Shown here piece by piece: positions 13,246 through 57,666 of a stretch of DNA of 64,000 nucleotides (positions are counted from its first letter, which is position 1; each line of letters opens with the position of its first letter). The notes below the pieces were generated by a model. It was not told the origin of the DNA. It did not search any database and saw only the letters and a program-made list of their open reading frames with translations. Source of the stretch: Saprospiraceae bacterium. Lineage in GTDB: Bacteria > Bacteroidota > Bacteroidia > Chitinophagales > Saprospiraceae. The position numbers and the translations under genes are program-made. The stretch lies in contig JADKKF010000014.1 in NCBI GenBank assembly GCA_016720635.1, forward strand, positions 20,988 to 84,987, in the 5' to 3' direction.

Positions 13246-13711
13246 TACGTTGAAGGACTTTTTTACCAAAACGCTAAAATATAATTTTTGGGCATTTGAA
13301 GTTATGTCTGACTTTGTCTTAGAGTATAAAATCCAGGACGATTATATACTAAAGCAGTTAAGCCATACATTGAATGCCAATAAAGTTTGGCTTAGCAGGA
13401 TTCAAGGCGAGACTTTCAAAATCGACCCATTTTTTGTGCATCCACCTATAACGTGGCTTCCCATGATACAGTCAGATGAAGCCAAGTGCTCTCAATTGTT
13501 AGAGTTTGGACCAGATTTGGAAACACAAATCCAATATACCACTCGAGATGGTAAACCACACGAATTAAGCCTCGGTGAAATATTCTTTATTCTTATAAAT
13601 CACGCCACCCACCATAGAGGCCAAGTAGCTGCAAGGATACGACAAATGGGCCTAGAACCACCCATCACAGATTATCCGCACTATTGTGGACTCATGACCA
13701 CAAAAGCTTAA
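13238..13711 (+). CDS. DinB-family (four-helix bundle) protein
   Basis: The C-terminal INHATHHRGQV motif is typical of the DinB/YfiT superfamily. The likely start is ATG 13238, which overlaps the upstream stop (ATGCATAA). The ORF-track start at 13205 is less likely. Confidence 0.7.
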   Translation: MHNTLKDFFTKTLKYNFWAFEVMSDFVLEYKIQDDYILKQLSHTLNANKVWLSRIQGETFKIDPFFVHPPITWLPMIQSDEAKCSQLLEFGPDLETQIQYTTRDGKPHELSLGEIFFILINHATHHRGQVAARIRQMGLEPPITDYPHYCGLMTTKA

Positions 13712-13714
13712 GAT

Positions 13715-14278
13715 TTACAAAGAAAGCCAATTTTTGATAATGGCGGGTCCATCGGGTGTGAGGATCGATTCTGGATGAAATTGGACCCCATGAAGTGGAA
13801 GATCACGATGCCTAAACGCCATGGCTATGCCGTTTTCATCCCATGCCGTGATGGTCAAACAGGATGGCAAATCTTCTAATGCCCAAGAGTGGTACCGCCC
13901 AGCCATCATGGGTGACTTTATCCCTCTGAATAATGGGTCATCCTCCACCAGTTCCATCGGCGTGGCTACCCCGTGATACACCTTTTTAAGATTGATCAGT
14001 TTTGCCCCAAATGACTTACCTATCGCTTGATATCCCAGACAAACTCCAAAAATCGGCTTAGTATATTTATATCGTTCGATTACATCCATTAGTTGCCCAG
14101 AATCCTTTGCCAGCCCAGGCCCTGGAGATAAGATGACCTTATCAAAGGCCCCAACTTCTGACATGATAATATGGTCATTGCGCACGACGGTCACATTTTC
14201 CTCTCCCAAATTTGCTTGGAGTAAATGCACCAAATTGTACGTAAACGAGTCATAATTGTCGATCATCAAAACCTTCAT
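13715..14278 (-). CDS. glutamine amidotransferase component II of anthranilate / aminodeoxychorismate synthase (TrpG/PabA)
   Basis: 187 aa. It has IDNYDSFTYNLV, the catalytic GVCLGYQAIG and GVQFHPESILT. Confidence 0.9.
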   Translation of the reverse strand: MKVLMIDNYDSFTYNLVHLLQANLGEENVTVVRNDHIIMSEVGAFDKVILSPGPGLAKDSGQLMDVIERYKYTKPIFGVCLGYQAIGKSFGAKLINLKKVYHGVATPMELVEDDPLFRGIKSPMMAGRYHSWALEDLPSCLTITAWDENGIAMAFRHRDLPLHGVQFHPESILTPDGPAIIKNWLSL

Positions 14279-14315
14279 ATTTCAATTATTTCTTGGCTCA
14301 AATGTATGATTTTTT

Positions 14316-14469
14316 GGGCGCATCCTTCCCTCGTCTTGTGGACGAGCTCAGGTCGGGCTATTCCAGGCTATCGGAGCATTCGTTTCCTTGGTCTCCGATG
14401 GATATCTTTTTTCTAGTTAAAACTCATGCTCCAGTCTTTCAGACTGCCTTTCATATCCCTTGCGCGCGC
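14316..14469 (+). repeat. GC-rich structured intergenic element, copy A (GGGCGC ... GCGCGCGC)
   Basis: This is a 154-nt GC-rich island in an AT-rich spacer. Perfect hairpins are CTCGTC(14330-35)/GACGAG(14341-46), CAGTCT(14432-37)/AGACTG(14441-46) and GGATAT(14400-05)/ATATCC(14453-58). It is homologous to copy B and shares ends and architecture with copy C. Confidence 0.6.
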
Positions 14470-14511
14470 AGACTTTTATTTCTGGGTGTGTATTTGATTT
14501 GGATATTTTTT

Positions 14512-16146
14512 CTATTTTGAACGAAGCCATGTTTCCCATTCAGATTGTGATTTAGCATTCAAACAAAATTCTTTTGTCAAGCCTCCTTTTCTAGCCGCTA
14601 TTACGCCATAATTGACATCCTGTATGCCTCCTCGGCTATGCGCATCGGGATTGATGGAAATCATCACGCCTTTCTTCATAGCAGGTGCGATCCAAGTCCA
14701 ATCCAAGTCCAATCGATATGGATTGGCGTTCAGTTCTATAACCACATTATTAGCAGCGCAGGCGTCTATTATTTTGAGCATATCTAGGGGATAGCCTTTC
14801 CTTGATAGCAACAATCTACCCGTTGGGTGTCCAAGGATTCGTGTGTAGGGGTTTTCAATGGCCGTTATCAGTCTTTGAGTGGCTTTTTCCTCGTCCATAT
14901 TGAGGACAGAATGGACCGAGGCTACCACAAGATCAAATTGCTTTAATATTTCGTCTTCGTAATCCAAACGACCATCTACCAGTATGTCGGATTCTATTCC
15001 TTTGTAAGTCTTGAACGGCTCCATTTTTTTATTCAAAAAATCTATTTCTTCCCATTGTTGGAACAATCTTTCTACCGATAATCCATTGGCATACCCAGCT
15101 GACTTTGAGTGATCGCTTATTACAAAATACGAATAATCTAGGCGACGACATTCCATCGCCATCTCCTCTAGGGTATGGATTCCATCGCTCCAAGTCGAGT
15201 GATTGTGCACAATCCCCTTGATATCCCCTGGAGTGATAAGATCAAGGCTGTTAAAACCATCCCAGTGGTCTAGTATATAAGATTCCCTGCACTCGACAGG
15301 TAGATAAGGTTTTTTCAATATTTCAAAGATCGACTTATCATACATGATATCGGCCCAATCAATATTTGTTAAATCTTTTTGGGTAAAACTCAAAAACTCC
15401 TCGCTCGCTGACATCTCCCATTTTACTTTTTCAAAGTCATCCCCATCCACTACATAGGTGATTATTGGAATTCCCTGACACTCAAAAGACCACCTATTCC
15501 CATCCACTTTTACCAGAGTTATCTCACTTTGATCTCTTTTTACCACAGGAATTTCAGATGTCAAATACTCCATTTGGTTCAGTACAGGCAGTTGACGACC
15601 GAAAAGCCCCACTCTTGTCCAAAATGGATTTTCAAAAGCAAGAAATACAGTGGATTCTAGTTTATCCAAATTTGCATAAAGAAACTGACCCTGGGATTGA
15701 AGGTAAAAATTTATCTTTTGTGTTAATTCTTGCTGGGTTTTTAAGCCAAAACCTTTGACCTCAATGAGTCTGTTTTCATTACAAGCGTATAACAACTCTA
15801 CTACGGATTCAATGCCAAGTTCTTTCCATATTTGGCGGACCTTTTTGGGCCCCAATCCATTGATTTTAAGCATTTCTACAACCCCTGAAGGTACTTTTTC
15901 CTTGATAGCACTCAACGCTTGGATTTCCCCATTTTGTAGAGCTTCTTGGATTTTTTCGGCCGATGATTTTCCGACTCCTGGGATTGCAGACATTTCTTCA
16001 ATCGACATGTTTTTCAAGGGTATATCCCATTTGCGCAATCCTAGATAAGCATTTTGATAGGTCCTTATCTTGAATGCATTTTCTTCCAACAATTCCATGA
16101 TGGAGGCCAATAGATCGAATTGTTTTGCGATTTCTTTATTCGTCAT
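14512..16146 (-). CDS. PolX-family protein with helix-hairpin-helix N-terminal part and C-terminal PHP phosphoesterase domain
   Basis: HhH motifs GVGKSSAEKI and GLGPKKVRQIW. PHP motifs GIVHNHSTWSDG, VISDHS and ASVHS ... LGHPTGR. Confidence 0.8.
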   Translation of the reverse strand: MTNKEIAKQFDLLASIMELLEENAFKIRTYQNAYLGLRKWDIPLKNMSIEEMSAIPGVGKSSAEKIQEALQNGEIQALSAIKEKVPSGVVEMLKINGLGPKKVRQIWKELGIESVVELLYACNENRLIEVKGFGLKTQQELTQKINFYLQSQGQFLYANLDKLESTVFLAFENPFWTRVGLFGRQLPVLNQMEYLTSEIPVVKRDQSEITLVKVDGNRWSFECQGIPIITYVVDGDDFEKVKWEMSASEEFLSFTQKDLTNIDWADIMYDKSIFEILKKPYLPVECRESYILDHWDGFNSLDLITPGDIKGIVHNHSTWSDGIHTLEEMAMECRRLDYSYFVISDHSKSAGYANGLSVERLFQQWEEIDFLNKKMEPFKTYKGIESDILVDGRLDYEDEILKQFDLVVASVHSVLNMDEEKATQRLITAIENPYTRILGHPTGRLLLSRKGYPLDMLKIIDACAANNVVIELNANPYRLDLDWTWIAPAMKKGVMISINPDAHSRGGIQDVNYGVIAARKGGLTKEFCLNAKSQSEWETWLRSK

Positions 16147-28248: not shown

Positions 28249-28364
28249 GTGCGCGAGGGGGTGAAGTGATCGACCCTTGGTCGAGTCTCAAAGAGACCAA
28301 AACGAAGTGGCGTCACGTAAGACCCGGTCTGATCTCGGCGATGAGACGAGAGCATGACGCGCCC
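28249..28364 (-). repeat. GC-rich structured intergenic element, copy B (reads GGGCGCGTC ... CTCGCGCAC on the minus strand)
   Basis: It begins 9 nt after the lspA stop. Hairpins are CGACC(28271-75)/GGTCG(28279-83), GTCTC(28285-89)/GAGAC(28293-97) and TCTCG(28333-37)/CGAGA(28347-51). By hand count, about two thirds of the first 50 nt are identical to copy A without gaps. Confidence 0.6.
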
Positions 28365-28467
28365 AAAACCTTCAAAAATTTTCATATAACAATCGAATTA
28401 ACCAAAAAAGGAATGTTACGAATAGGTTAATGGCGCATTTTATTTGCATATATGCGCATAAAATTGA

Positions 28468-41657: not shown

Positions 41658-44040
41658 TCATTTGATAGCCACTGAAAAGCCTTCTACTTTGTCCTCGATA
41701 TCAAAATATTTCAAACCCACGATGGTTTTTGACATGTCTGTTCCTTTTATAAAAGGATCGAAATTCGATATCGGAACCACCCAGCTGAAATCCATCGATT
41801 CGGTTTTCGCCTTTATGTCCCCAAAACCATGTAGGAATACGCGCCACTTCTGATTAGCCAATCGGTAGGTGCCTTCTACAGCTCCAAAGTCTAGCCCACT
41901 GCCATTGAAGACGATATTTCTCCTATAAAAAATCGACTTTTCGTGATCGGTAGTCATCCCATCGTCCATATAATAAGCAAAGGTATCACCAGCAAAATCT
42001 GAATTATAGACATGGATTGCGATAAATGAAAAATCAAGTTCGCCTGTGTGCTGGCCGACATTGTTTTGAATGACGAGATTCCCAGCTTTGGCAAATATCG
42101 GCAATTTATCCTTTGGATACTCAAGGAGATATTCGATATTTCCATTCAGTATTTTATCATTGAAAAAGTCATACCAGACACCCACAGGCAGGTATAATTT
42201 GATGAATTCTTTGCCCTCCTTCTATCGGACAAATCAAGAGCGACTGCCCGCAGAAAAATTGGCTATCGTATTTGAAATCAAAGATTTGCCATTCTTTCCA
42301 ATGATCTATCGCCAGGGATCTGATGATAGGTAGCCCACTTCTTGTATATTCATGAAAATGGCTATACATATAGGCCATCAATTGGTAGCGAAGTTTGATA
42401 TAATTCATCCCGATTTCCGTAGCTTCCTCACCATATGACCAAGGCTCGCTGGTCTTCGAATTGATCATAGTATGCATCCTGAAAAGCGGCGTAAATGCCC
42501 CAACTTGAATCCATCGAATGTACAAGTCTGGCCAACAATCTCCGATGAATCCCCCTACGTCATTCCCTGCAAATGCCATACCACCAAGTCCCAAATTGGA
42601 TACCAATTTGGCTCCCAAGAGCAGATGGTCATTGCTAGAACAGTTATCGCCAGTCCATATCGCACAGTATCTTTGAGATCCCGCAAATGCAGCCCTGGTC
42701 AGTACGAAGGGTCGCTCCTGAGGCTTAGATTTCACCAAGCCTTCTTGAGTAGCACGAGTCATTTGCATCCCATATATATTCCTAGCTTCTTTGTGAGACG
42801 CCCCTTGACCTTCATAATGAAATTGGATCAGATCGGGCATCTTTTGACCCCAAGCTGCGGGTTCATTCATATCGTTCCAAAATCCCGTGACCCCCAAATC
42901 CCTCAACTCGGAAACTCTTTGTGCCCACCATTCCCTCGTTTCTTGCTTGGTATAATCTGGAAAATGACACCAACCCGGCCACACTTCTCCCGAATAGGGG
43001 CTTCCGTCAGGGTACATCGCAAATAAGTTATCAGCCAGTGCACTGTCGTATGGCTCATATCCAGCTTCCACCTTTATCCCCGGATCCAATATCACGACGA
43101 CTTTGAATCCTAAAGCTTTCAGCTCTTCTAGCAATTCTTTCGGATGCGAGAATGTTTTTTCATTCCAAGTAAAAACCTTGTAATCTTGCATATAGTGGAT
43201 ATCCAAGTAGATCACGTCCCCAGGTATTCCCTTTTCTCTGAACGTCTTGGCTATCCTCAAAACTTCGGTATCTGGATAATAGCTGTATCGACACTGTTGA
43301 AAGCCCAGACTCCACATCGGGGGCATCTGATGGCGACCCGTCAGTTGGGTATATTGCGTCAGGATCCCAGCAATATTTCCAGTAAAAAAGAAATAATAAT
43401 CCAGCAATCCCTTATCAGCTCTAAAAAAACTGAATCGATCGTTGGAGCAGCCAAAATTAAAGGTCGTCCGCGAACTATTGTCCAAAAATACGCCATAGGG
43501 CATCTCCTCTTTTATCCCCAAATAAAACGGGAGACTCGCATAGATGGGGTCAGATTCAGTTTGGTATCCAAAAAAATCCGTGTTCCAATTCGTAAATTGG
43601 TGACCTCTTTTGTCCAAGTGCTGCGTCTTTTCTCCAAGCCCCAAAAATCGCTCGTGATCGTGTAGCTTTTTATAATTGGTGACTTCATCCCCATCCCAAC
43701 TTATACTAAAACTTGGGTCATCTCCAAGGATTAATTTATCTTCAAGTGTGTAGATATTTAGGCAAAATGGCGATTTCATCACCTGAATTTTGAAAAATGG
43801 GGCTGCCAACCAATCTTCGGTTACACCTTCGGCGAGTACTATTTTAGATAGAGACTGCACCTTCTCGACAGAATAAGATACCTTCTCCCATGACTGCTCT
43901 GGCCTTTTCGCGACTACTCGCAATACACCATTTTCTAGTACACTGAGTCGCACAGATCCGTTGGTACACGTGTATTCTACTATGTTTTGAACTTGTTCAG
44001 ATTTTGTTACATTCCCGATGTTTATCCAGTCTTTTGCCAT
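41658..44040 (-). pseudogene. GH31 alpha-glucosidase split into ORFs 42169..44040 and 41658..42185 by a 1-nt indel
   Basis: GFWNDMNEP (catalytic nucleophile region), WTGDN and FRMH motifs. The 175-aa ORF is the normal GH31 C-terminal beta-sandwich. The junction reads ...CPIEG | KEFIKLYLPVGVWYDFF when the frame is shifted at the CCC run 42214..42216. Confidence 0.85.
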
Positions 44041-44085
44041 TCCTATTCCTTAAAATAATGCGTACAATTAATTTTTATTTTTTTA

Positions 44086-44197
44086 GGGCGTGCCAGAGCT
44101 ACCGCTCTGTCGGTCTATTGCGGGGTTCGCAAAGCTCCGTCTTATCTCTTTTCTTCGAAAAAGAGCCAAGACCAAGCCCTCCATAGACCTCACGCGC
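44086..44197 (+). repeat. GC-rich structured intergenic element, copy C (GGGCGTGCC ... CCTCACGCGC)
   Basis: Hairpins are AGAGC(44095-99)/GCTCT(44104-08) and CTCTTTT(44146-52)/AAAAGAG(44159-65). It shares the T-run + GGGCG 5' end, the CGCGC 3' end and the two-hairpin layout with copies A and B, but its interior is more divergent. Confidence 0.5.
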
Positions 44198-46092: not shown

Positions 46093-46166
46093 GGCGCGGT
46101 AGCTCAGCTGGTTAGAGCGTATGATTCATAATCATAAGGTCGGCGGTTCAAGCCCGCCTCGCGCTA
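46093..46166 (+). tRNA. tRNA with CAT anticodon (elongator Met, or Ile2 if C34 is lysidinylated)
   Basis: Hand-folded cloverleaf. The acceptor is GGCGCGG/TCGCGCT (G-U pairs at 1-72 and 7-66). The D arm is GCTC-AGCTGGTTA-GAGC. The anticodon stem TATGA/TCATA carries the loop TTCATAA. The T arm is GGCGG-TTCAAGC-CCGCC. No CCA is encoded. The anticodon stem lacks the three G-C pairs expected of an initiator. Confidence 0.85.
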
Positions 46167-46182
46167 CGAAAAAACAAAACTT

Positions 46183-49569: not shown

Positions 49570-52500
49570 CTATTCTACTAACGTTACGTCTCCTGTCTTT
49601 TTAATTATGCTTCCATCTAACAAGGTAATTTCCGTCGAATAAACAAAAACTGCGGGCTTCATAAGCAGCAACTTAAATGTGCCATTCCATCCTTTTTGAG
49701 TTCCATTTATCGTGAAATCTTTTTCCTCGTGAACCATATTGCCCCATCTATCAAATATTCTCAAATAATTAACTTTTTCAATTTTTAAGTCATCAGAATA
49801 AATTCTGAATACATCATTAATACCGTCCCCATTCGGTGAAAAAGCATTGGGTATATAAATTTTGATATTCTTTTTAACGATGACATTTACAAGATCTTCT
49901 GATGTACAACCCATCAAATCCGTTACACGAACTCGATAAGTCCCTGATATTTTTGGTGTGTCAATCAAAATGTCAGAATTATTGTTGAAAATTTTAGGTC
50001 CACTTGACCAATTCCATTGGGATATTTGGCTGGTTGGTTTATTAGTTATAGCAATCAATTGTACGCTTTCTCCTAATTCAATTTCAACTAAATCTGGCAA
50101 ATCAACAGTTAACCCTGAGACGGAATCAAAAACAACGGTATCTCTAATTTGACATCCCCGCTCGTCTTGTATAGTTAAGATATGTGTTCCAGGACTTAAA
50201 TTATTCAGCGATAGGCTTCCATTAAAATTCGTAAATGGTTGACCAGCGGGAAAGGAATATTTGTATGGTGGCGTTCCGTTCGTAATCGATGTAACACGGA
50301 TTGTTCCAGTCCTAGTAAGACAAGTGATTGAATCTATATTAATATTGAAATTGATTGGTAGCGGCGCAATTAAAGAAATTGAATCAACTACTTTACAGCC
50401 AATACCATCAGTTACAGTATATCGATATGTTCCTTGACTAAGATTATTTAAAGAAGTGGAATTTTGTCCATTTGACCAATTGACATTAACAGTTCCAATA
50501 CCTTGATTGACTGTTAGTTCTACTTTGCCATCACTTAAGCCAAAACAACTTATCGGACTTGAAATGCGAGAAGATGCATTCAAAGCGCAAGCTGAGTTTG
50601 TTATTGAAAAACCACAATTAGCACTACAGTTATTACCATCTCGGACAACGACAGAATAAACTCCAGAAACTAATCCATTTACAGAATTTTCGCCCAAAAC
50701 TCCAGGTTGTTGCCCAGATGATGGACCGACCCAAAGAATCGTATATGGAGATGCGCCTCCACTAATGAAGACCGAACCTATTCCATCCGCATTTGCTCCT
50801 GATGATGCTGGAGATTTTTGCAAGCAATTCAAAGAAACGCCTGGACTAGCAACAAGGATGAAAGACGAAGCAGAACTGCAACCTGCCGCAATGTCGGTGA
50901 CAGTTACGGAATAAGTCCCAGCAGATAAACTATTGGGATTTGCTCCTGAAGGATTTCCAAGTCCTTGCCAAGTATATGAATAACCCACGCCACTCGGTGT
51001 TACAGATATGCCTCCATTATTGAGTCCACAACTTGGATTGGATAAGCTTCCTGAAACATTAAGACCTTGACTGGCTGTAAGAACGAAAGACGAAACAGAA
51101 CTACAACCAGCTGCAATGTTGGTGACAGTTACGGTATAAGTTCCAGCAGATAAGCTGGTAGGATTTGCTCCTGAAGGATTTCCAAGTCCTTGCCATGTAT
51201 ATGAGTAACCTACGCCATTCGGTGTTACAGATATACTTCCATTATTGAGTCCACAGCTTGGATTGATTCCATTTAAGGAAATAGATAAATTTGTTGACCC
51301 GTTTATTGTAAATCCAGTTGAAGCAGAACATCCACCAACCGTATTTGTAACGGTAACGACATAATTTCCGGGTGCAAGGTTTGTTCTTATAGAAGAACTA
51401 AGTCCAATATCACCCCAATTATAGGTAAACCCAGCCCCAGCAGGAGTAACAGTAATGGCCCCATTGTCTTGCCCACAGCTGGTTTGGGTGATATTGGCAC
51501 CAGCGGTTAACCCAGAAGAAGCATTTAAAGTAAAGCTAGAAGAAGTCCTACATCCAGTCGCAGTCTCAGTCACGGTGACAGTATAGGTACCAGCCCCTAA
51601 ATTCATAGGATTATTTCCTGAAAGAGCAGCATTAGACCATGCGTAAGAATAACCAGGAGGAGCAGGGTTGATTTCAATAGCACCGTTGTTCAAACCACAA
51701 CTTGGTTGGCTGACAATAGGATTCAAGACCAAAGCACCAGTACTAGTAATAGTAAAAATAGAACTGGATTTGCACCCAGTCGCAGTTTCTGTGACGGTGA
51801 CCGTATAATCACCAGCTCCAAGACCTGTTCTGATATTGGTAATGACACCCGATCCAGCCCAAGCATAAGAATAACCTGGAGGAGTAGGAGTAACAGAAAT
51901 AGCCCCGTTGTTATTTCCACAGCTTGCTTGGGTAATATTACCTCCGATGGCAAAAGGAGTGGATGGGTTGATTGTTATTGTTGTGGTTGATTTGCAACCA
52001 GAAGCTGTCTGAGTAACCGTAACGGTATAATCACCGGCAGCTAAGCCAGTTCTTATGTTGGTAGTAATACCCGACCCAGCCCAAGCATAAGAATAACCTG
52101 GAGGAGCAGGAGTAACCGAAATGGCCCCATTGTCTTGTCCACAGCTGGTTTGAGAGACATTTGAACCGACGGAAAATGGCGTTGATCCATTGATCGTGAT
52201 GCTTGTGGATGAAGCACATCCACCAACCGTATTTGTAACGGTAACGACATAATTTCCAGGAGAGAGGTTTGTTCTAATAGAAGAACTAAGTCCAATATCA
52301 CCCCAATTATAGGTAAACCCAGCCCCTGTAGGAGTAACAGTAATGGCCCCATTGTCTTGCCCACAGCTGGTTTGGGTGATATTCGCACCAGCGGTTAATC
52401 CTGCAGAAGCATTTAAAGTAAAGCTAGAAGAAGCCCGACATCCAGTCGCGGTTTCGGTAACGGTGACAGTAAATGTACCAGCCCCTAAATTCATAGGATT

Positions 52501-55500
52501 ATTTCCTGAAAGAGCAGCATTAGACCATGCGTAAGTATAACCTGGAGGAGGAGGATTGATTTCAATGGCACCATTGTTCAAACCACAACTTGGTTGGCTG
52601 ACAATAGGATTCAAGACCAAAGCACCAGTACTAGTAATAGTAAAAATAGAACTGGATTTGCACCCAGTCGCAGATTCTGTGACGGTGACCGTATAATCAC
52701 CAGCTCCAAGACCTGTTCTGATATTGGTAATGACACCCGATCCAGCCCAAGCATAAGAATAACCAGGAGGAACCGGAATAACTGAAACGGCTCCGTTGTT
52801 ATTTCCACAGCTTGCTTGGGTAATATTACCACCGATGGCAAAAGGAGTGGATGGGTTGATTGTTATTGATGTGGTTGATTTGCAACCAGAAGCTGTCTGA
52901 GTAACCGTAACGGTATAATCACCGGCAGCTAAGCCAGTTCTTATATTGGTAGTAATACCCGACCCAGCCCAAGCATAAGAATAACCTGGAGGAGCAGGAG
53001 TAACCGAAATGGCCCCATTGTCTTGTCCACAGCTGGTTTGAGAGACATTTGAACCGACGGAAAATGGCGTTGATCCATTGATCGTGATGCTTGTGGATGA
53101 AGCACATCCACCAACCGTATTTGTAACGGTAACGACATAATTTCCAGGAGAGAGGTTTGTTCTAATAGAAGAACTAAGTCCAATATCACCCCAATTATAG
53201 GTAAACCCAGCCCCTGTAGGAGTAACAGTAATGGCCCCATTGTCTTGCCCACAGCTGGTTTGGGTGATATTCGCACCAGCGGTTAATCCTGCAGAAGCAT
53301 TTAAAGTAAAGCTAGAAGAAGCCCGACATCCAGTCGCGGTTTCGGTAACGGTGACAGTATAGGTACCAGCCCCTAAATTCATAGGATTATTTCCTGAAAG
53401 AGCAGCATTAGACCATGCGTAAGTATAACCTGGAGGAGGAGGATTGATTTCAATGGCACCATTGTTCAAACCACAACTTGGTTGGCTGACAATAGGATTC
53501 AAGACCAAAGCACCAGTACTAGTAATAGTAAAAATAGAACTGGATTTGCACCCAGTCGCAGTTTCTGTGACGGTGACTGTATAATCACCAGCCCCAAGGT
53601 TTGTTCTGATATTGGTAATAACACCTGATCCAGCCCAAGCATAAGAATAACCAGAAGGAGCAGGAGTAACCGAAATGGCTCCGTTGTTATTTCCACAGCT
53701 TGCTTGGGTAATATTACCTCCAATGGCAAAAGGAGTGGAAGGGTTGATGGTTATTGATGCGGTTGATTTGCAACCAGAAGCTGTCTGAGTAACCGTAACG
53801 GTATAATCACCAGCAGCTAAGCCAGTTCTTATGTTGGTAGTAATACCCGATCCAGCCCAAGCATAAGAATAACCAGGAGGAGCCGGAGTAACGGAAATGG
53901 CCCCATTGTCTTGTCCACAGCTTGTTTGAGAGACATTTGAACCGACGGAAAATGGCGTTGATCCATTGATCGTGATGCTTGTGGATGAAGCACATCCACC
54001 AACCGTATTTGTAACGGTAACGACATAATTTCCAGGAGAGAGGTTTGTTCTAATAGAAGAACTAAGTCCAATATCACCCCAATTATAGGTAAACCCAGCC
54101 CCAGCAGGAGTAACAGTTATGGCTCCATTGTCTTGCCCACAACTGGTTTGGGTGATATTAGCACCAGCGGTTAATCCCGCAGAAGCATTTAAAGTAAAGC
54201 TAGAAGAAGTCCGACATCCAGTGGCGGTCTCAGTCACGGTGACAGTAAATGTTCCAGCCCCTAAATTCATAGGATTATTTCCTGAAAGAGCAGCATTAGA
54301 CCAAGCATAAGTATAACCAGGAGGTGGAGGGTTGATTTCAATGGCACCGTTGTTCAAACCACAACTTGGTTGGCTGACAGTTGGAGTCAATACTAGTGGA
54401 CTAGAAGGATTTATAGTAAAAATAGAACTGGATTTGCACCCAGTCGCAGTTTCAGTGACGGTGACCGTATAATCACCAGCCCCAAGGCTTGTTCTGATAT
54501 TGGTAATGACACCCGATCCAGCCCAAGCATAAGAATAACCAGGAGGAGCAGGAGTAACCGAAATGGCTCCGTTGTTATTTCCACAGCTTGCTTGGGTAAT
54601 ATTACCTCCAATGGCAAAAGGAGTGGAAGGGTTGATGGTTATTGATGCGGTTGATTTGCAACCAGAAGCTGTCTGAGTAACCGTAACGGTATAATCACCA
54701 GCAGCTAAGCCAGTTCTTATGTTGGTAGTAATACCCGATCCAGCCCAAGCGTAAGTATAACCTGGAGGAGCCGGAGTAACGGAAATGGCCCCATTGTCTT
54801 GTCCACAGCTTGTTTGAGAGACATTTGAACCAACGGAAAATGGCGTTGATCCATTGATCGTGATGCTTGTGGATGAAGCACATCCACCAACCGTATTTGT
54901 AACGGTAACAATATAATTACCAGAGGCAAGGTTTGTTCTAGTAGAAGAACTAAGTCCAATATCACCCCAATTATAGGTAAACCCAGCCCCAGCAGGAGTA
55001 ACAGTTATGGCTCCATTGTCTTGCCCACAACTGGTTTGGGTGATATTAGCACCAGCGGTTAATCCCGCAGAAGCATTTAAAGTAAAGCTAGAAGAAGTCC
55101 TACATCCAGTCGCAGTCTCAGTCACGGTGACAGTATAGGTACCAGCCCCTAAATTCATAGGATTATTTCCTGAAAGAGCAGCATTAGACCATGCGTAAGT
55201 ATAACCAGGAGGAGGAGGGTTGATTTCAATGGCACCGTTGTTCAAACCACAACTTGGTTGGCTGACAGTTGGAGTCAATACTAGTGGACTAGAAGGATTT
55301 ATAGTAAAAATGGAACTGGATTTGCAACCAGTCGCCGTTTCTGTGACGGTAACCGTATAAGATCCTGGAGACAAGCCTGTTCTAATATTAGTCATAACAC
55401 CCGACCCAGCCCAAGCATAAGAATAACCAGGAGGAAGAGGAGTAACAGAAATGGCCCCATTGTTATTTCCACAGCTTGCTTGGGTAATATTATCTCCAAT

Positions 55501-57666
55501 GGCAAAAGGAGTGGATGGGTTGATAGTTATTGATGCGGTTGATTTGCAACCAGAAGCTGTCTGAGTAACTGTAACGGTATAATCACCAGCAGCTAAGCCA
55601 GTTCTTATATTGGAAGTAATACCCGACCCAGCCCAAGCGTAAGTATAACCTGGAGGAGCAGGAGTAATCGAAATGGCCCCATTATCTTGTCCACAGCTTG
55701 TTTGAGAGACATTTGAACCAACGGAAAATGGCGTTGATCCATTGATCGTGATGCTTGTGGATGAAGCACATCCACCAACCGTATTTGTAACGGTAACAAT
55801 ATAATTACCAGAGGCAAGGTTTGTCCTTGTAGAGGAGCTAAGTCCAATATCGCCCCAATTGTAAGTAAATCCAGCCCCAGCAGGAGTAACAGTTATGGCC
55901 CCATTGTCTTGCCCACAGCTGGTTTGGGTGATATTGGTACCGGCGGTTAACCCAGAAGAAGCATTCAAAGTAAAGCTAGAAGAAGCCCGACATCCAGTCG
56001 CGGTTTCGGTGACGGTGACGGTAAATGTTCCAGCCCCTAAATTCATAGGATTATTTCCTGAAAGAGCAGCATTAGACCATGCGTAAGTATAACCAGGAGG
56101 AGGAGGATTGATTTCAATGGCACCATTGTTCAAACCACAGCTTGGTTGGCTGACAGTTGGAGTCAATACTAGTGGACTAGAAGGATTTATAGTAAAAATG
56201 GAACTGGATTTGCACCCAGTCGCAGTTTCTGTCACAGTAACCGTATAAGATCCTGGAGACAAACCCGTTCTAATATTAGTCGTAACACCCGACCCAGCCC
56301 AAGTATAGGTATAACCAGGAGGAGCCGGAGTAACCGAAATGGCCCCATTGTTATTTCCACAGCTTGCTTGGGTAATATTACCTCCAATGGCAAAAGGAGT
56401 GGATGGGTTGATAGTTATTGATGCGGTTGATATACAACCAGAGGCTGTTTGAGTAACTGTAACGGTATAATCACCAGCAGCTAAGCCAGTTCTTATATTG
56501 GTAGTAATACCCGACCCAGCCCAAGCATAGGTATAACCAGGAGGAAGAGGAGTAACAGAAATGGACCCATTGTCTTGTCCACAGCTTGTTTGAGTGACAT
56601 TTGAACCAACGGAAAATGGCGTTGATCCATTGATTGTGATGCTTGAGGTGGAAGCACATCCACCTACTGTATTTGTAACTGTAACGACATAATTTCCAGG
56701 AGAGAGGTTTGTCCTAGTAGAAGAACTAAGTCCAATATCTGACCAATTGTAATTGTAACTTGCCCCAGTAGGGGTGATTGAAATGGCCCCATTGTTATTT
56801 CCGCACATTGTTTGAGTGATATTCGCCCCAACCATTAATCCAGTTGAAGGATTTAATGTGAAACTAGAACTCGTTCGACACCCAGTCGTAGTTTCGGTAA
56901 CAGTGACAGTATAGGTACCAGCGCCTAAATTCATAGGGTTGTTTCCTGAAAGTGCAGCATTGGACCAAGCATAGGTATAATTAGGAGGAGCTGGATTTAC
57001 TAAAATGGCACCATTGTCCAATCCGCAGCTAGGTTGCGTTAATGTGGGACTTATATTGAATAAAGATGAAGGTGTTATGGTAAAAGTGGAACTCGATCTG
57101 CACCCAGTGGCTGTTTCTGTTACGGTAACTGTGTAAGATCCTGGAGACAAACCCGTTCTAGTATTAGTAGTAATACCCGACCCAGCCCAAGAATAAGTAT
57201 ATCCTGGTGGAGCTGGAGTGACCTCAATCGCCCCATTATTATTCCCACACGTTGTTTGAGTTATATTTCCACCAATAGCCAACGGTGTAGAAGAATTGAT
57301 GGTTACCGTTGCGGTTGACCTACAACCAGTGGCGGTTTGAGTAACAGTAACTGTATATGACCCTGGAGCTAATCCGGTTCTAGTATTTGTAGTGACCCCT
57401 GATCCAGCCCAAGCATAAGTATATCCTGGAGGGGCAGGAGTGACTGTAATAGCACCATTATTATTTCCACAACTTGTTTGAGTGACATTGGTAGCTGCAA
57501 CCAAGGAACAAGGGTTGCCATAATAATTTAAACAAATTTCATCCATACTAATTGTAGAAAATCGACAGAAAATGGGAATAGTGACCGTGTAGCATAATAC
57601 ATAATCTGCATTTGGAGTTAAATTTGTATATTCAGGATTGAACCGAATACTGGTCAGGTTGTACAT
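49570..57666 (-). CDS. giant cell-surface adhesin-like protein: about 30 SprB-type repeats, further Ig-like modules, and a T9SS type B C-terminal sorting domain; no signal peptide in the intact ORF
   Basis: 2698 aa. It carries about 74-aa modules built on (T/S)Q(T/P/A)SCG(N/Q/L)(N/D)NGAI.V.P ... Y.W ... G.Y.VTVT....GC. The C-terminal IYIPNAFSPNGDGINDVF ... FDRWGNMV is the type B CTD signature. Confidence 0.9.
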   Translation of the reverse strand: MYNLTSIRFNPEYTNLTPNADYVLCYTVTIPIFCRFSTISMDEICLNYYGNPCSLVAATNVTQTSCGNNNGAITVTPAPPGYTYAWAGSGVTTNTRTGLAPGSYTVTVTQTATGCRSTATVTINSSTPLAIGGNITQTTCGNNNGAIEVTPAPPGYTYSWAGSGITTNTRTGLSPGSYTVTVTETATGCRSSSTFTITPSSLFNISPTLTQPSCGLDNGAILVNPAPPNYTYAWSNAALSGNNPMNLGAGTYTVTVTETTTGCRTSSSFTLNPSTGLMVGANITQTMCGNNNGAISITPTGASYNYNWSDIGLSSSTRTNLSPGNYVVTVTNTVGGCASTSSITINGSTPFSVGSNVTQTSCGQDNGSISVTPLPPGYTYAWAGSGITTNIRTGLAAGDYTVTVTQTASGCISTASITINPSTPFAIGGNITQASCGNNNGAISVTPAPPGYTYTWAGSGVTTNIRTGLSPGSYTVTVTETATGCKSSSIFTINPSSPLVLTPTVSQPSCGLNNGAIEINPPPPGYTYAWSNAALSGNNPMNLGAGTFTVTVTETATGCRASSSFTLNASSGLTAGTNITQTSCGQDNGAITVTPAGAGFTYNWGDIGLSSSTRTNLASGNYIVTVTNTVGGCASSTSITINGSTPFSVGSNVSQTSCGQDNGAISITPAPPGYTYAWAGSGITSNIRTGLAAGDYTVTVTQTASGCKSTASITINPSTPFAIGDNITQASCGNNNGAISVTPLPPGYSYAWAGSGVMTNIRTGLSPGSYTVTVTETATGCKSSSIFTINPSSPLVLTPTVSQPSCGLNNGAIEINPPPPGYTYAWSNAALSGNNPMNLGAGTYTVTVTETATGCRTSSSFTLNASAGLTAGANITQTSCGQDNGAITVTPAGAGFTYNWGDIGLSSSTRTNLASGNYIVTVTNTVGGCASSTSITINGSTPFSVGSNVSQTSCGQDNGAISVTPAPPGYTYAWAGSGITTNIRTGLAAGDYTVTVTQTASGCKSTASITINPSTPFAIGGNITQASCGNNNGAISVTPAPPGYSYAWAGSGVITNIRTSLGAGDYTVTVTETATGCKSSSIFTINPSSPLVLTPTVSQPSCGLNNGAIEINPPPPGYTYAWSNAALSGNNPMNLGAGTFTVTVTETATGCRTSSSFTLNASAGLTAGANITQTSCGQDNGAITVTPAGAGFTYNWGDIGLSSSIRTNLSPGNYVVTVTNTVGGCASSTSITINGSTPFSVGSNVSQTSCGQDNGAISVTPAPPGYSYAWAGSGITTNIRTGLAAGDYTVTVTQTASGCKSTASITINPSTPFAIGGNITQASCGNNNGAISVTPAPSGYSYAWAGSGVITNIRTNLGAGDYTVTVTETATGCKSSSIFTITSTGALVLNPIVSQPSCGLNNGAIEINPPPPGYTYAWSNAALSGNNPMNLGAGTYTVTVTETATGCRASSSFTLNASAGLTAGANITQTSCGQDNGAITVTPTGAGFTYNWGDIGLSSSIRTNLSPGNYVVTVTNTVGGCASSTSITINGSTPFSVGSNVSQTSCGQDNGAISVTPAPPGYSYAWAGSGITTNIRTGLAAGDYTVTVTQTASGCKSTTSITINPSTPFAIGGNITQASCGNNNGAVSVIPVPPGYSYAWAGSGVITNIRTGLGAGDYTVTVTESATGCKSSSIFTITSTGALVLNPIVSQPSCGLNNGAIEINPPPPGYTYAWSNAALSGNNPMNLGAGTFTVTVTETATGCRASSSFTLNASAGLTAGANITQTSCGQDNGAITVTPTGAGFTYNWGDIGLSSSIRTNLSPGNYVVTVTNTVGGCASSTSITINGSTPFSVGSNVSQTSCGQDNGAISVTPAPPGYSYAWAGSGITTNIRTGLAAGDYTVTVTQTASGCKSTTTITINPSTPFAIGGNITQASCGNNNGAISVTPTPPGYSYAWAGSGVITNIRTGLGAGDYTVTVTETATGCKSSSIFTITSTGALVLNPIVSQPSCGLNNGAIEINPAPPGYSYAWSNAALSGNNPMNLGAGTYTVTVTETATGCRTSSSFTLNASSGLTAGANITQTSCGQDNGAITVTPAGAGFTYNWGDIGLSSSIRTNLAPGNYVVTVTNTVGGCSASTGFTINGSTNLSISLNGINPSCGLNNGSISVTPNGVGYSYTWQGLGNPSGANPTSLSAGTYTVTVTNIAAGCSSVSSFVLTASQGLNVSGSLSNPSCGLNNGGISVTPSGVGYSYTWQGLGNPSGANPNSLSAGTYSVTVTDIAAGCSSASSFILVASPGVSLNCLQKSPASSGANADGIGSVFISGGASPYTILWVGPSSGQQPGVLGENSVNGLVSGVYSVVVRDGNNCSANCGFSITNSACALNASSRISSPISCFGLSDGKVELTVNQGIGTVNVNWSNGQNSTSLNNLSQGTYRYTVTDGIGCKVVDSISLIAPLPINFNINIDSITCLTRTGTIRVTSITNGTPPYKYSFPAGQPFTNFNGSLSLNNLSPGTHILTIQDERGCQIRDTVVFDSVSGLTVDLPDLVEIELGESVQLIAITNKPTSQISQWNWSSGPKIFNNNSDILIDTPKISGTYRVRVTDLMGCTSEDLVNVIVKKNIKIYIPNAFSPNGDGINDVFRIYSDDLKIEKVNYLRIFDRWGNMVHEEKDFTINGTQKGWNGTFKLLLMKPAVFVYSTEITLLDGSIIKKTGDVTLVE
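51300..57510 (-). repeat. higher-order tandem repeat, 7 copies of an 888-bp (296-aa, four-module) unit inside the adhesin gene
   Basis: Identical strings recur at exactly 888-nt spacing, for example the block starting near 51681, 52569 and 53457, and a variant block near 54345, 55233 and 56121. Spurious ORFs in the supplied track recur with the same period. Confidence 0.9.

Follow-up and report, generated by a model that had tools for sequence, protein, structure and literature searches.

What kind of element are the three GC-rich islands that lie between genes in a 64-kb stretch of a Saprospiraceae metagenome-assembled genome (MAG; contig JADKKF010000014.1, the whole stretch being called the window here)? 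A sequence-only reading of this DNA had taken the islands, copies A, B and C, for a recurrent, hairpin-rich family and had proposed a repetitive extragenic palindromic (REP) element, a miniature inverted-repeat transposable element (MITE) or a small RNA (sRNA). We find that A, B and C are, with high confidence, dispersed repeats that belong to the Flavo-1 family (RF01705). They are divergent members of it, and the published Flavo-1 model is one arm of a larger structure, a three-way junction made of a closing stem (P1), a long arm (P2) and a hairpin (P3). The explanation that we favour overall, and that we judge about as likely to be right as wrong, is a REP-like, non-coding dispersed repeat that is recognised as a folded single strand.

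The islands stand where they had been reported and are richer in GC (A 0.49, B 0.58, C 0.53) than the window as a whole (0.389). On the forward strand, A and C open with a T-run, then GGGCG(C/T), and close in CGCGC, and B is the reverse complement of this arrangement; the block common to A and B is likewise present (TTCGTTTCCTTGGTCTC in A, TTCGTTTTGGTCTC in B). In gene sense the three copies share the consensus GCGYR-A-GG ... AGMCC-G ... YRCGC-CC-(A/U)AAA, and the string CGCCCWAAA occurs 6 times where 1.28 occurrences are expected. Their global identities are 60% (A-B), 57% (A-C) and 42% (B-C).

A degenerate pattern derived from A, B and C was scanned over one genome per species and found at least 120 DNA stretches, with 134 pattern matches among them. 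About 110 of the matches listed carry the consensus GCGUGAGGGAUAG...AUAGCCCGACC...CACGCCCAAAA, and roughly 25 of the 134, in high-GC taxa, are chance; carriers among the matches listed are Flavobacterium, Kaistella, Riemerella, Chryseobacterium, Saprospiraceae, Lewinellaceae and Parabacteroides, together with many Treponema and Spirochaetaceae MAGs and a few other lineages. We built a covariance model, R1, from 51 elements of other genomes, window copies excluded; this training set includes Rfam-positive elements (e.g., L045, L063, L034, L010, L069 and L093). R1 recovers 192 copies in 98 loci (701 kb in total). When run on the window with filters off, it scores A at 66 bits (E = 1e-17), C at 48.3 (1e-12) and B at 38.4 (1e-9), and these are the sole copies within the window. 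The next-best match, 14.9 bits at 1124-1176 on the minus strand, falls inside the open reading frame (ORF) 259-2427 and reads UUGCG-25 nt-CGCCCAAAA; it has the signature of P1 and tail but no arms, amounts to little beyond the tail, and is probably a chance match.

Rfam itself reports no Flavo-1 in the window at the gathering threshold (42 bits), nor at E<=10 around A, B and C. In 18 fetched loci, it yields 11 Flavo-1 hits of 47-66 bits, nine of which coincide with R1 hits, and it detects nine of the 29 junction elements in those loci; the remaining two hits are hairpin-only forms without P1 or P3 (L118 1728-1815 and L093 4398-4507; 66 and 50 bits), which are preceded by UAGCC and followed by an A-run. 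The Rfam model, one hairpin of 76 positions, corresponds to arm P2. The homology of the window copies to Flavo-1 is thus seen through intermediate sequences, as R1, with its Rfam-positive members, scores A, C and B. At the base of the Flavo-1 hairpin (ccG-A-Uu-GnA-Gc ... gC-GnA-aA-G-Cgg, with 1x1 and 3x3 internal loops), copy A keeps GGG-A-UA-UGA-AGGC.../...GCCU-GGA-AUA-G-CCC, copy C has GGU-C-UA... / ...UA-G-ACC with compensatory changes, and copy B matches more weakly in a shifted register. The Saprospiraceae origin of the window also falls within the taxonomic range of Flavo-1 (Bacteroidota, mainly Flavobacteriia, and Spirochaetes), and the family was recovered in Flavobacterium, Kaistella, Riemerella, Saprospiraceae, Parabacteroides and Treponema.

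Flavo-1 was described without an assigned function from Flavobacteria, other Bacteroidetes and Spirochaetes (Weinberg 2010, PMC2864571). Rows of its seed alignment already read GCGUGAGGGAUA...AUAGCCCGACC and ...GCGUGA GGGAUA.GAAGC...GGAUAGCCCGACC (Weinberg 2010, PMC2864571). It is among the most abundant sRNA families (PMC9029176). A literature search for strings of the core sequence returned primer and 16S rRNA coincidences and nothing else. The sequence-only reading had allowed that a match to a known family might already account for the islands; Flavo-1 does name them, but Rfam misses the window copies and no function is assigned to the family, so they stay unexplained by the name.

In full, the element measures 110-170 nt, and one of its strands only folds into a closed three-way junction. 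P1 is a 5-bp closing stem, GCGYR/YRCGC, separated by one unpaired A from P2, whose base is kept as GGG-A-U-N-GNA... / ...GNA-N'-A-G-CCC with purine-purine mismatches and whose tip is freely replaceable. P2 and P3 are joined by GA(C), or by GG in copy B, and P3 is a hairpin of variable sequence across the family, unrelated in each window copy. Behind P1 follows a conserved CC-AAAA tail; CC(C)AAAA is likewise conserved in the 80 model hits that fail the original pattern. The family consensus can be written as GCGUGAGGGAUAG-[variable arm]-AUAGCCCGAC(C)-[variable hairpin]-(G)GCACGCCCAAAA. With boundaries refined accordingly, the window copies and their parts are as follows.

14310-14465, minus strand: copy A, whole, 156 nt, with P1, long arm P2, hairpin P3 and a CC-AAAAAA tail (R1 66 bits, E = 1e-17)
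14461-14465, minus strand: copy A, 5' strand of P1, GCGCA, with its partner UGCGC at 14318-14322; the helix covaries in the family
14355-14459, minus strand: copy A, arm P2, base GGGAUAU.../...AUAGCCC; the region homologous to the Rfam Flavo-1 model
14324-14352, minus strand: copy A, hairpin P3, CCU/AGG, a GAG/GGA loop, then CUCGUC/GACGAG (RNA and DNA folding)
14310-14322, minus strand: copy A, 3' strand of P1, UGCGC, and tail CCAAAAAA; the tail is also kept in family members not selected for it
28251-28368, plus strand: copy B, whole, 118 nt, the most degenerate copy (R1 38.4 bits, E = 1e-9)
28251-28255, plus strand: copy B, 5' strand of P1, GCGCG, pairing with CGCGC at 28358-28362
28257-28325, plus strand: copy B, arm P2 (GGGGGUG.../...AAGACCC; folding and R1 alignment)
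28328-28356, plus strand: copy B, hairpin P3 (CUCGGC/GACGAG), homologous to P3 of A
28358-28368, plus strand: copy B, 3' strand of P1, CGCGC, and tail CCAAAA
44078-44195, minus strand: copy C, whole, 118 nt (R1 48.3 bits, E = 1e-12)
44191-44195, minus strand: copy C, 5' strand of P1, GCGUG, pairing with CACGC at 44088-44092
44112-44189, minus strand: copy C, arm P2, base GGUCUAU/AUAGACC around two inner hairpins
44095-44108, minus strand: copy C, hairpin P3 (AGAGC-GGUA-GCUCU; RNA and DNA folding)
44078-44092, minus strand: copy C, 3' strand of P1, CACGC, and tail CCUAAAAAAA

The hairpins named in the sequence-only reading (CTCGTC/GACGAG in A, TCTCG/CGAGA in B and AGAGC/GCTCT in C) exist and form the distal part of P3; the two-hairpin architecture built on them was incomplete, as the fold is a closed junction. 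Arm P2 of copy A contains an A.G mismatch, a 3x3 loop and an extra hairpin specific to this copy, and P1 of copy C has a U-A pair in place of the C-G pair of A and B, an instance of covariation. Folded as RNA, the copies give z-scores of -3.3 (A), -1.7 (B) and -5.4 (C); DNA energy parameters give the same fold (z = -3.3 for A and -6.1 for C), with the sense strand more stable than its complement.

The proposal of a structured family, with helices at kept positions, is borne out by covariation. In a sequence-only MAFFT alignment of 51 diverse elements, without any window copy, pairing was counted over a structure of 17 pairs: 90.9% of cells pair, compared with 75.6% in shuffles and 28-48% when partners are slid, and double changes occur in 147 cells versus 53 in shuffles. 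The variable pairs of P1 covary near-perfectly (UA 38, CG 12, UG 1; GC 39, AU 11, GU 1), and these combinations were not forced, as the search pattern admitted any. The old and divergent window copies retain all three helices by compensatory changes.

This fold is strongly strand-specific: it is a property of one strand, the one that reads GCGUGAGGG. Among 98 dereplicated elements, GCGNAGC occurs 82 times and its reverse complement 4 times, and the folding energy is lower on the sense strand in 83. Helix pairs that would differ between the strands are also uneven, with GU/UG 22 times versus AC/CA 5 times and GA/AG 40 times versus CT/TC 7 times, and three purine-purine oppositions are kept in 31-45 of 51 sequences. 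As to whether the folded strand is DNA or RNA, 35 of the 68 triloops are C-GNA-G, and among 81 tetraloops GNRA is found nine times and UNCG once. Among DNA mini-hairpins, d(GCGNAGC) is a classic example of very high stability, whereas natural structured RNAs prefer GNRA and UNCG loops. Loop composition therefore leans towards single-stranded DNA without settling the matter.

All three window copies lie, as had been observed, behind a stop codon and before the next gene on the same strand, and all three read in gene sense: A between a PolX-like gene and the start of a glutamine amidotransferase (GATase) gene, B between the LspA gene and a DUF1599 gene, and C between a thioredoxin-like gene and a GH31 gene. 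The shared orientation relative to transcription holds in the window (three of three) but not in the family. We called gene orientation by a longest-ORF rule, which is crude yet workable in AT-rich genomes, and by this rule the 88 copies with two neighbours outside the MAG Bacteroidia SKYG108 comprise 33 between convergent genes, 19 between divergent genes, 15 in co-directional sense and 21 in co-directional antisense contexts. Adding the window copies brings the co-directional total to 18 sense and 21 antisense; family orientation is thus unbiased, and the uniform orientation in the window is a small-sample chance. The median distance to gene 3' ends is 47 nt, with 60% of copies within 60 nt, and that to gene 5' ends is 117 nt; some copies occupy whole convergent spacers or abut stop codons. 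No gene family recurs beside the elements across the family.

Copy number and position vary widely among genomes. Density ranges from 1 copy per 21 kb in the window to 1 per 1.7 kb in SKYG108, where 82 copies fall within 136.6 kb (19 loci, among L002-L110), form genome-specific subfamilies and are often clustered in mixed orientation. Elements of SKYG108 have a conserved AT-rich 5' flank (…aggtaaaacatcaaaa.gc.gctt), repeated hairpin units TTTAYCTTGT-N23-ACAAGRTAAA upstream and, between divergent element pairs, about 340 nt of hairpin repeats (e.g., L094 2144-2746). In the Saprospiraceae MAG CAYXSA01 (L012, L036, L043, L046, L062, L065, L081 and L095), P2-tip and P3 modules are recombined among copies. 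Some copies of this MAG carry canonical double-foot GTAG REPs (GTAGGGACAAGGCATGCCTTGTCCCTAC) within the P2 tip, which differ very little from the REP given for RAYT subclass 2.4 (PMC6006769), and a GC-rich hairpin and then a T-run usually stand directly upstream of P1.

Element sites are conserved among close relatives only. That copy positions differ between genomes, as the sequence-only reading had proposed to ask of strains, was found among Flavobacterium species rather than strains of the window lineage. Three Flavobacterium genomes share a copy at one orthologous convergent spacer, with core and P3 about 97% identical and a P2 tip of about 65 nt that is wholly different between genomes; at this site four species whose M20 hydrolase is 87-91% identical have none. 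In the preA-M20 spacer, only F. pallidum has a copy, and five other species hold unrelated fillers. This spacer between the preA-like and M20 hydrolase genes (L144-L149) is itself hypervariable, 1-213 nt long with a different filler in each species: a perfect palindrome in L145 (AACCCTGATAGGGTTTTAAACCCTATCAGGGTT), AT-rich repeats in L148, another inverted repeat in L149 and, in L144, a sequence that resembles a duplicated fragment of the 5' end of the M20 gene.

Taken as a dispersed repeat of the REP/REPIN kind, the element would not be a regulator of adjoining genes. We propose that the three-way junction may serve as the recognition structure for a trans-acting factor, which would copy or maintain the element while the strand is single-stranded; the folded form would be somewhat likelier to be single-stranded DNA than RNA, as the loops suggest. 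For this single-strand mechanism itself, we would put the chances a little short of even. Several of our observations weigh against it. We infer mobility by a dedicated enzyme, and only infer it, because no enzyme, target duplication or exact pair of empty and filled sites was found: a regex scan of about 700 kb of element-bearing loci and of the window revealed no HUH/Y1-like ORF, the copies show neither a target-site duplication nor long terminal inverted repeats, and the loci compared yielded no precise empty-site/filled-site pair. Loss of copies or turnover of spacers, rather than insertion, could underlie the presence/absence differences. The structures published around the Bacteroidetes-specific RAYT subclass 2.6 (PMC6006769) gave no match to the junction core. 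The co-directional counts, subject to the crude orientation rule, contain no hint of a leading- or lagging-strand (template) bias, and purine-purine mismatches and covariation are equally compatible with RNA. The window copies, at 42-60% identity, are old, with no sign of a recent burst. Finally, a core kept over several phyla is uncommon in selfish repeats, and it may hint at a role in the host.

Could the elements be genes for RNAs instead? Under the label given by Rfam and Weinberg in 2010, Flavo-1 would be a family of independently transcribed, trans-acting sRNAs whose junction binds a protein or other RNAs. The strong covariation, the strand-specific fold, the conserved non-canonical purine pairs typical of structured RNA and the GC-rich islands in AT-rich genomes all agree with this, as does one Leptospira transcriptome in which a transcribed region has a Flavo-1 match. 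We nevertheless consider it unlikely, since there is no conserved promoter at a fixed distance: upstream of the elements no position-specific motif appears except a pyrimidine at -1, and the Bacteroidota -7 box TAnnTTTG precedes the sense strand in 6 of 84 cases, its background frequency. The element also closes in an A-run, with no U-run terminator, and in F. psychrophilum Flavo-1 hits occur in either orientation relative to transcribed regions, and many hits are untranscribed (PMC9723704). Nor do 82 copies in 137 kb of one genome, or copies that fill convergent spacers or abut stop codons, resemble an sRNA gene. A cis-acting RNA in the 3' untranslated region (UTR) of the upstream gene, acting as a non-canonical terminator, an exonuclease block that stabilises the mRNA or an insulator, would suit the position of all three window copies in sense behind a stop codon, the proximity of gene 3' ends and the enrichment between convergent genes (33 of 88). 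Functions of this sort have been proposed for REPs of E. coli. We hold it to be improbable here, as co-directional copies are antisense (21) as well as sense (15), and about half of them could not fold in the mRNA because the fold is strand-specific. In addition, no U-run follows P1, the sense strand reading CCAAAA in A and B and CCUAAAA in C, and related Flavobacterium genomes have ordinary hairpin-plus-U-run terminators at the equivalent positions.

A further account keeps the junction in DNA and dispenses with mobility: a domesticated, immobile chromosomal site at which the junction, extruded from DNA, binds a host protein of the nucleoid, a topoisomerase or a replication or repair factor, and is selected in place. 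The core kept over Bacteroidota, Spirochaetota and a few other phyla speaks for it, as do the divergent window copies that retain three helices by compensation and the orthologous copy in three Flavobacterium genomes; we rate it as rather unlikely, given that sites are unconserved past close relatives, that copy density varies from the window to SKYG108 as described above and that no candidate protein is known. There remains the reading in which the islands are low-complexity GC-rich strings that are alike by chance. Copy B, whose fold (z = -1.7) is no better than that of many shuffles, and the 42% identity of B and C would fit it; however, R1, built independently of the window, hits just these three window sites (E = 1e-9 to 1e-17) and 192 relatives elsewhere. 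Together with the covariation, this refutes a chance likeness, to which we attach a negligible probability.

Some narrower identifications were also rejected. A riboswitch or leader does not suit downstream genes as unrelated as GATase, DUF1599 and GH31, nor the lack of a recurrent neighbour in the family. A tRNA-like reading, in which CCA would follow P1, was dropped, since in the window ARAGORN and Rfam detect nothing of the kind except a tRNA-Met gene (anticodon CAT), at 46093-46167 on the plus strand. Its 3' acceptor end contains, in reverse complement, the 8-mer that opens copy B (GCGCGAGG), which we judge to be a coincidence. By inspection, the junction misfits hammerhead, twister-sister and other ribozyme cores, and Rfam gives no such hits. 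A retron-like non-coding RNA was rejected, as no reverse transcriptase gene was noticed beside the copies and multi-copy dispersal is unfitting. Phage carriage was rejected as well: 18 pattern matches in viral contigs (IMG/VR, L150-L167) are chance, since none scores with R1. Twelve of these 18 are exactly 114 nt long, suggesting one conserved sequence in related viruses.

How does the element compare with known systems? It shares with Flavo-1 the conserved arm GGGAU.G.AG.GG ... AG.G.A.AGCCCGA, the taxa and the absence of a link to particular genes, and differs in being a closed junction with P1, P3 and a CC-AAAA tail instead of the published 76-position hairpin. With REPs and REPINs it has in common an extragenic, multi-copy distribution near gene 3' ends and between convergent genes, a one-strand fold, genome-specific subfamilies and mixed-orientation clusters in one MAG, so that, of the three candidates named in the sequence-only reading, the REP-like one fits best, while MITE hallmarks and promoter support for an sRNA gene are lacking. 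High copy number, extragenic position, nearness to gene 3' ends and genome-specific subfamilies were all found. The G-N-A-G at the foot of the distal P2 stem recalls the GT[AG]G foot of REPs; N is T in only 19 of 51 elements, so that foot proper is not a feature of the family. A REP is a simple palindrome, 20-40 nt long, whose foot is strictly GTAG or GTGG, in contrast to the 110-170-nt junction, and the GTAG REPs nested in the P2 tip in CAYXSA01 mark it as a distinct element. A regex scan of the loci and the window found no RAYT gene nearby, and the published Bacteroidetes RAYT structures are unlike the junction.

Longer repeats offer other parallels. In the bcr1 repeats of Bacillus cereus, the Correia elements of Neisseria and the ERIC sequences of enterobacteria, the terminal inverted repeats are long and the target duplications are defined (TA, TTTAT); each of these repeats occurs within a single genus or family. 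Like the present element, they are intergenic repeats of 100-150 nt with a conserved predicted structure, compensatory changes and either orientation; here, however, terminal pairing is limited to 5 bp, no duplication was seen and the core spans phyla. A MITE would be expected to have a target-site duplication and terminal inverted repeats of some 10 bp or more; neither was seen in the copies, whose flanks show a pyrimidine at -1 and an A-run. The ends of IS200/IS605 elements and of their non-autonomous derivatives, the palindrome-associated transposable elements (PATEs), are also recognised as strand-specific folded single-stranded DNA without target duplication. They have paired subterminal hairpins, whereas the Flavo-1 element has a three-way junction, and here neither tnpA/tnpB genes nearby nor a leading/lagging-strand bias was found.

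The history of the individual window copies can be followed in part. Near-identical metagenome contigs hold A and B at corresponding sites (for B, in the metagenome relative L123), and a metagenome relative whose PabA is 84% identical keeps copy A at 98-99% identity. Compared with window 13291-15451, contig L122 is 96-100% identical from 15450 to about 14200 and 62-92% identical over pabA and beyond, a mosaic which suggests a recombination breakpoint just within the 5' part of pabA. The identity of copy A therefore says little about selection, because the element falls in the 96-100% block of this recombinant mosaic. None of 20 metagenome DUF1599 loci (38-56% protein identity) has an element, and these loci are too distant to define an insertion junction, or empty site, for copy B.

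Other features of the window were noted in passing. The ORF 14293-14520 on the plus strand overlaps copy A and exemplifies a spurious small ORF that arises from a GC-rich island. Downstream of C, two ORFs with a 17-nt overlap make up the GH31 glycoside hydrolase gene (41658-44040, minus strand): 42169-44040 encodes the N-terminal and catalytic domains, and 41658-42185 encodes the C-terminal GH31 domain together with DUF5110. The split has the look of a frameshift, which may reflect a pseudogene or an assembly error. The part of the window with the highest GC content (0.41-0.455 versus 0.389 overall) contains a giant ORF of 2698 amino acids (49570-57666, minus strand).

Flavo-1 has been catalogued, in sRNA listings, since 2010 without an assigned function; added here are the full three-way junction with its tail, its strand specificity, the absence of orientation bias and promoters, and the presence/absence differences between species, which taken together speak for REP-type behaviour. 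Because the published model covers one arm and misses divergent copies, current annotations under-count the family. We tentatively raise the possibility, less probable than the explanation itself, that the Flavo-1 "small RNA" may be no RNA gene at all, being instead one arm of a multi-phylum junction element that an enzyme copies or maintains as folded single-stranded DNA. In that case the element would represent a new structural class of REP-like repeat, apart from the GTAG and CGTC palindromes and the known RAYT-associated structures. For the window, A, B and C give no pointer to regulation of the genes beside them. For the family, copies that are indifferent to orientation and lack promoters move the question from the targets of an sRNA to what recognises the folded strand, be it DNA or RNA.

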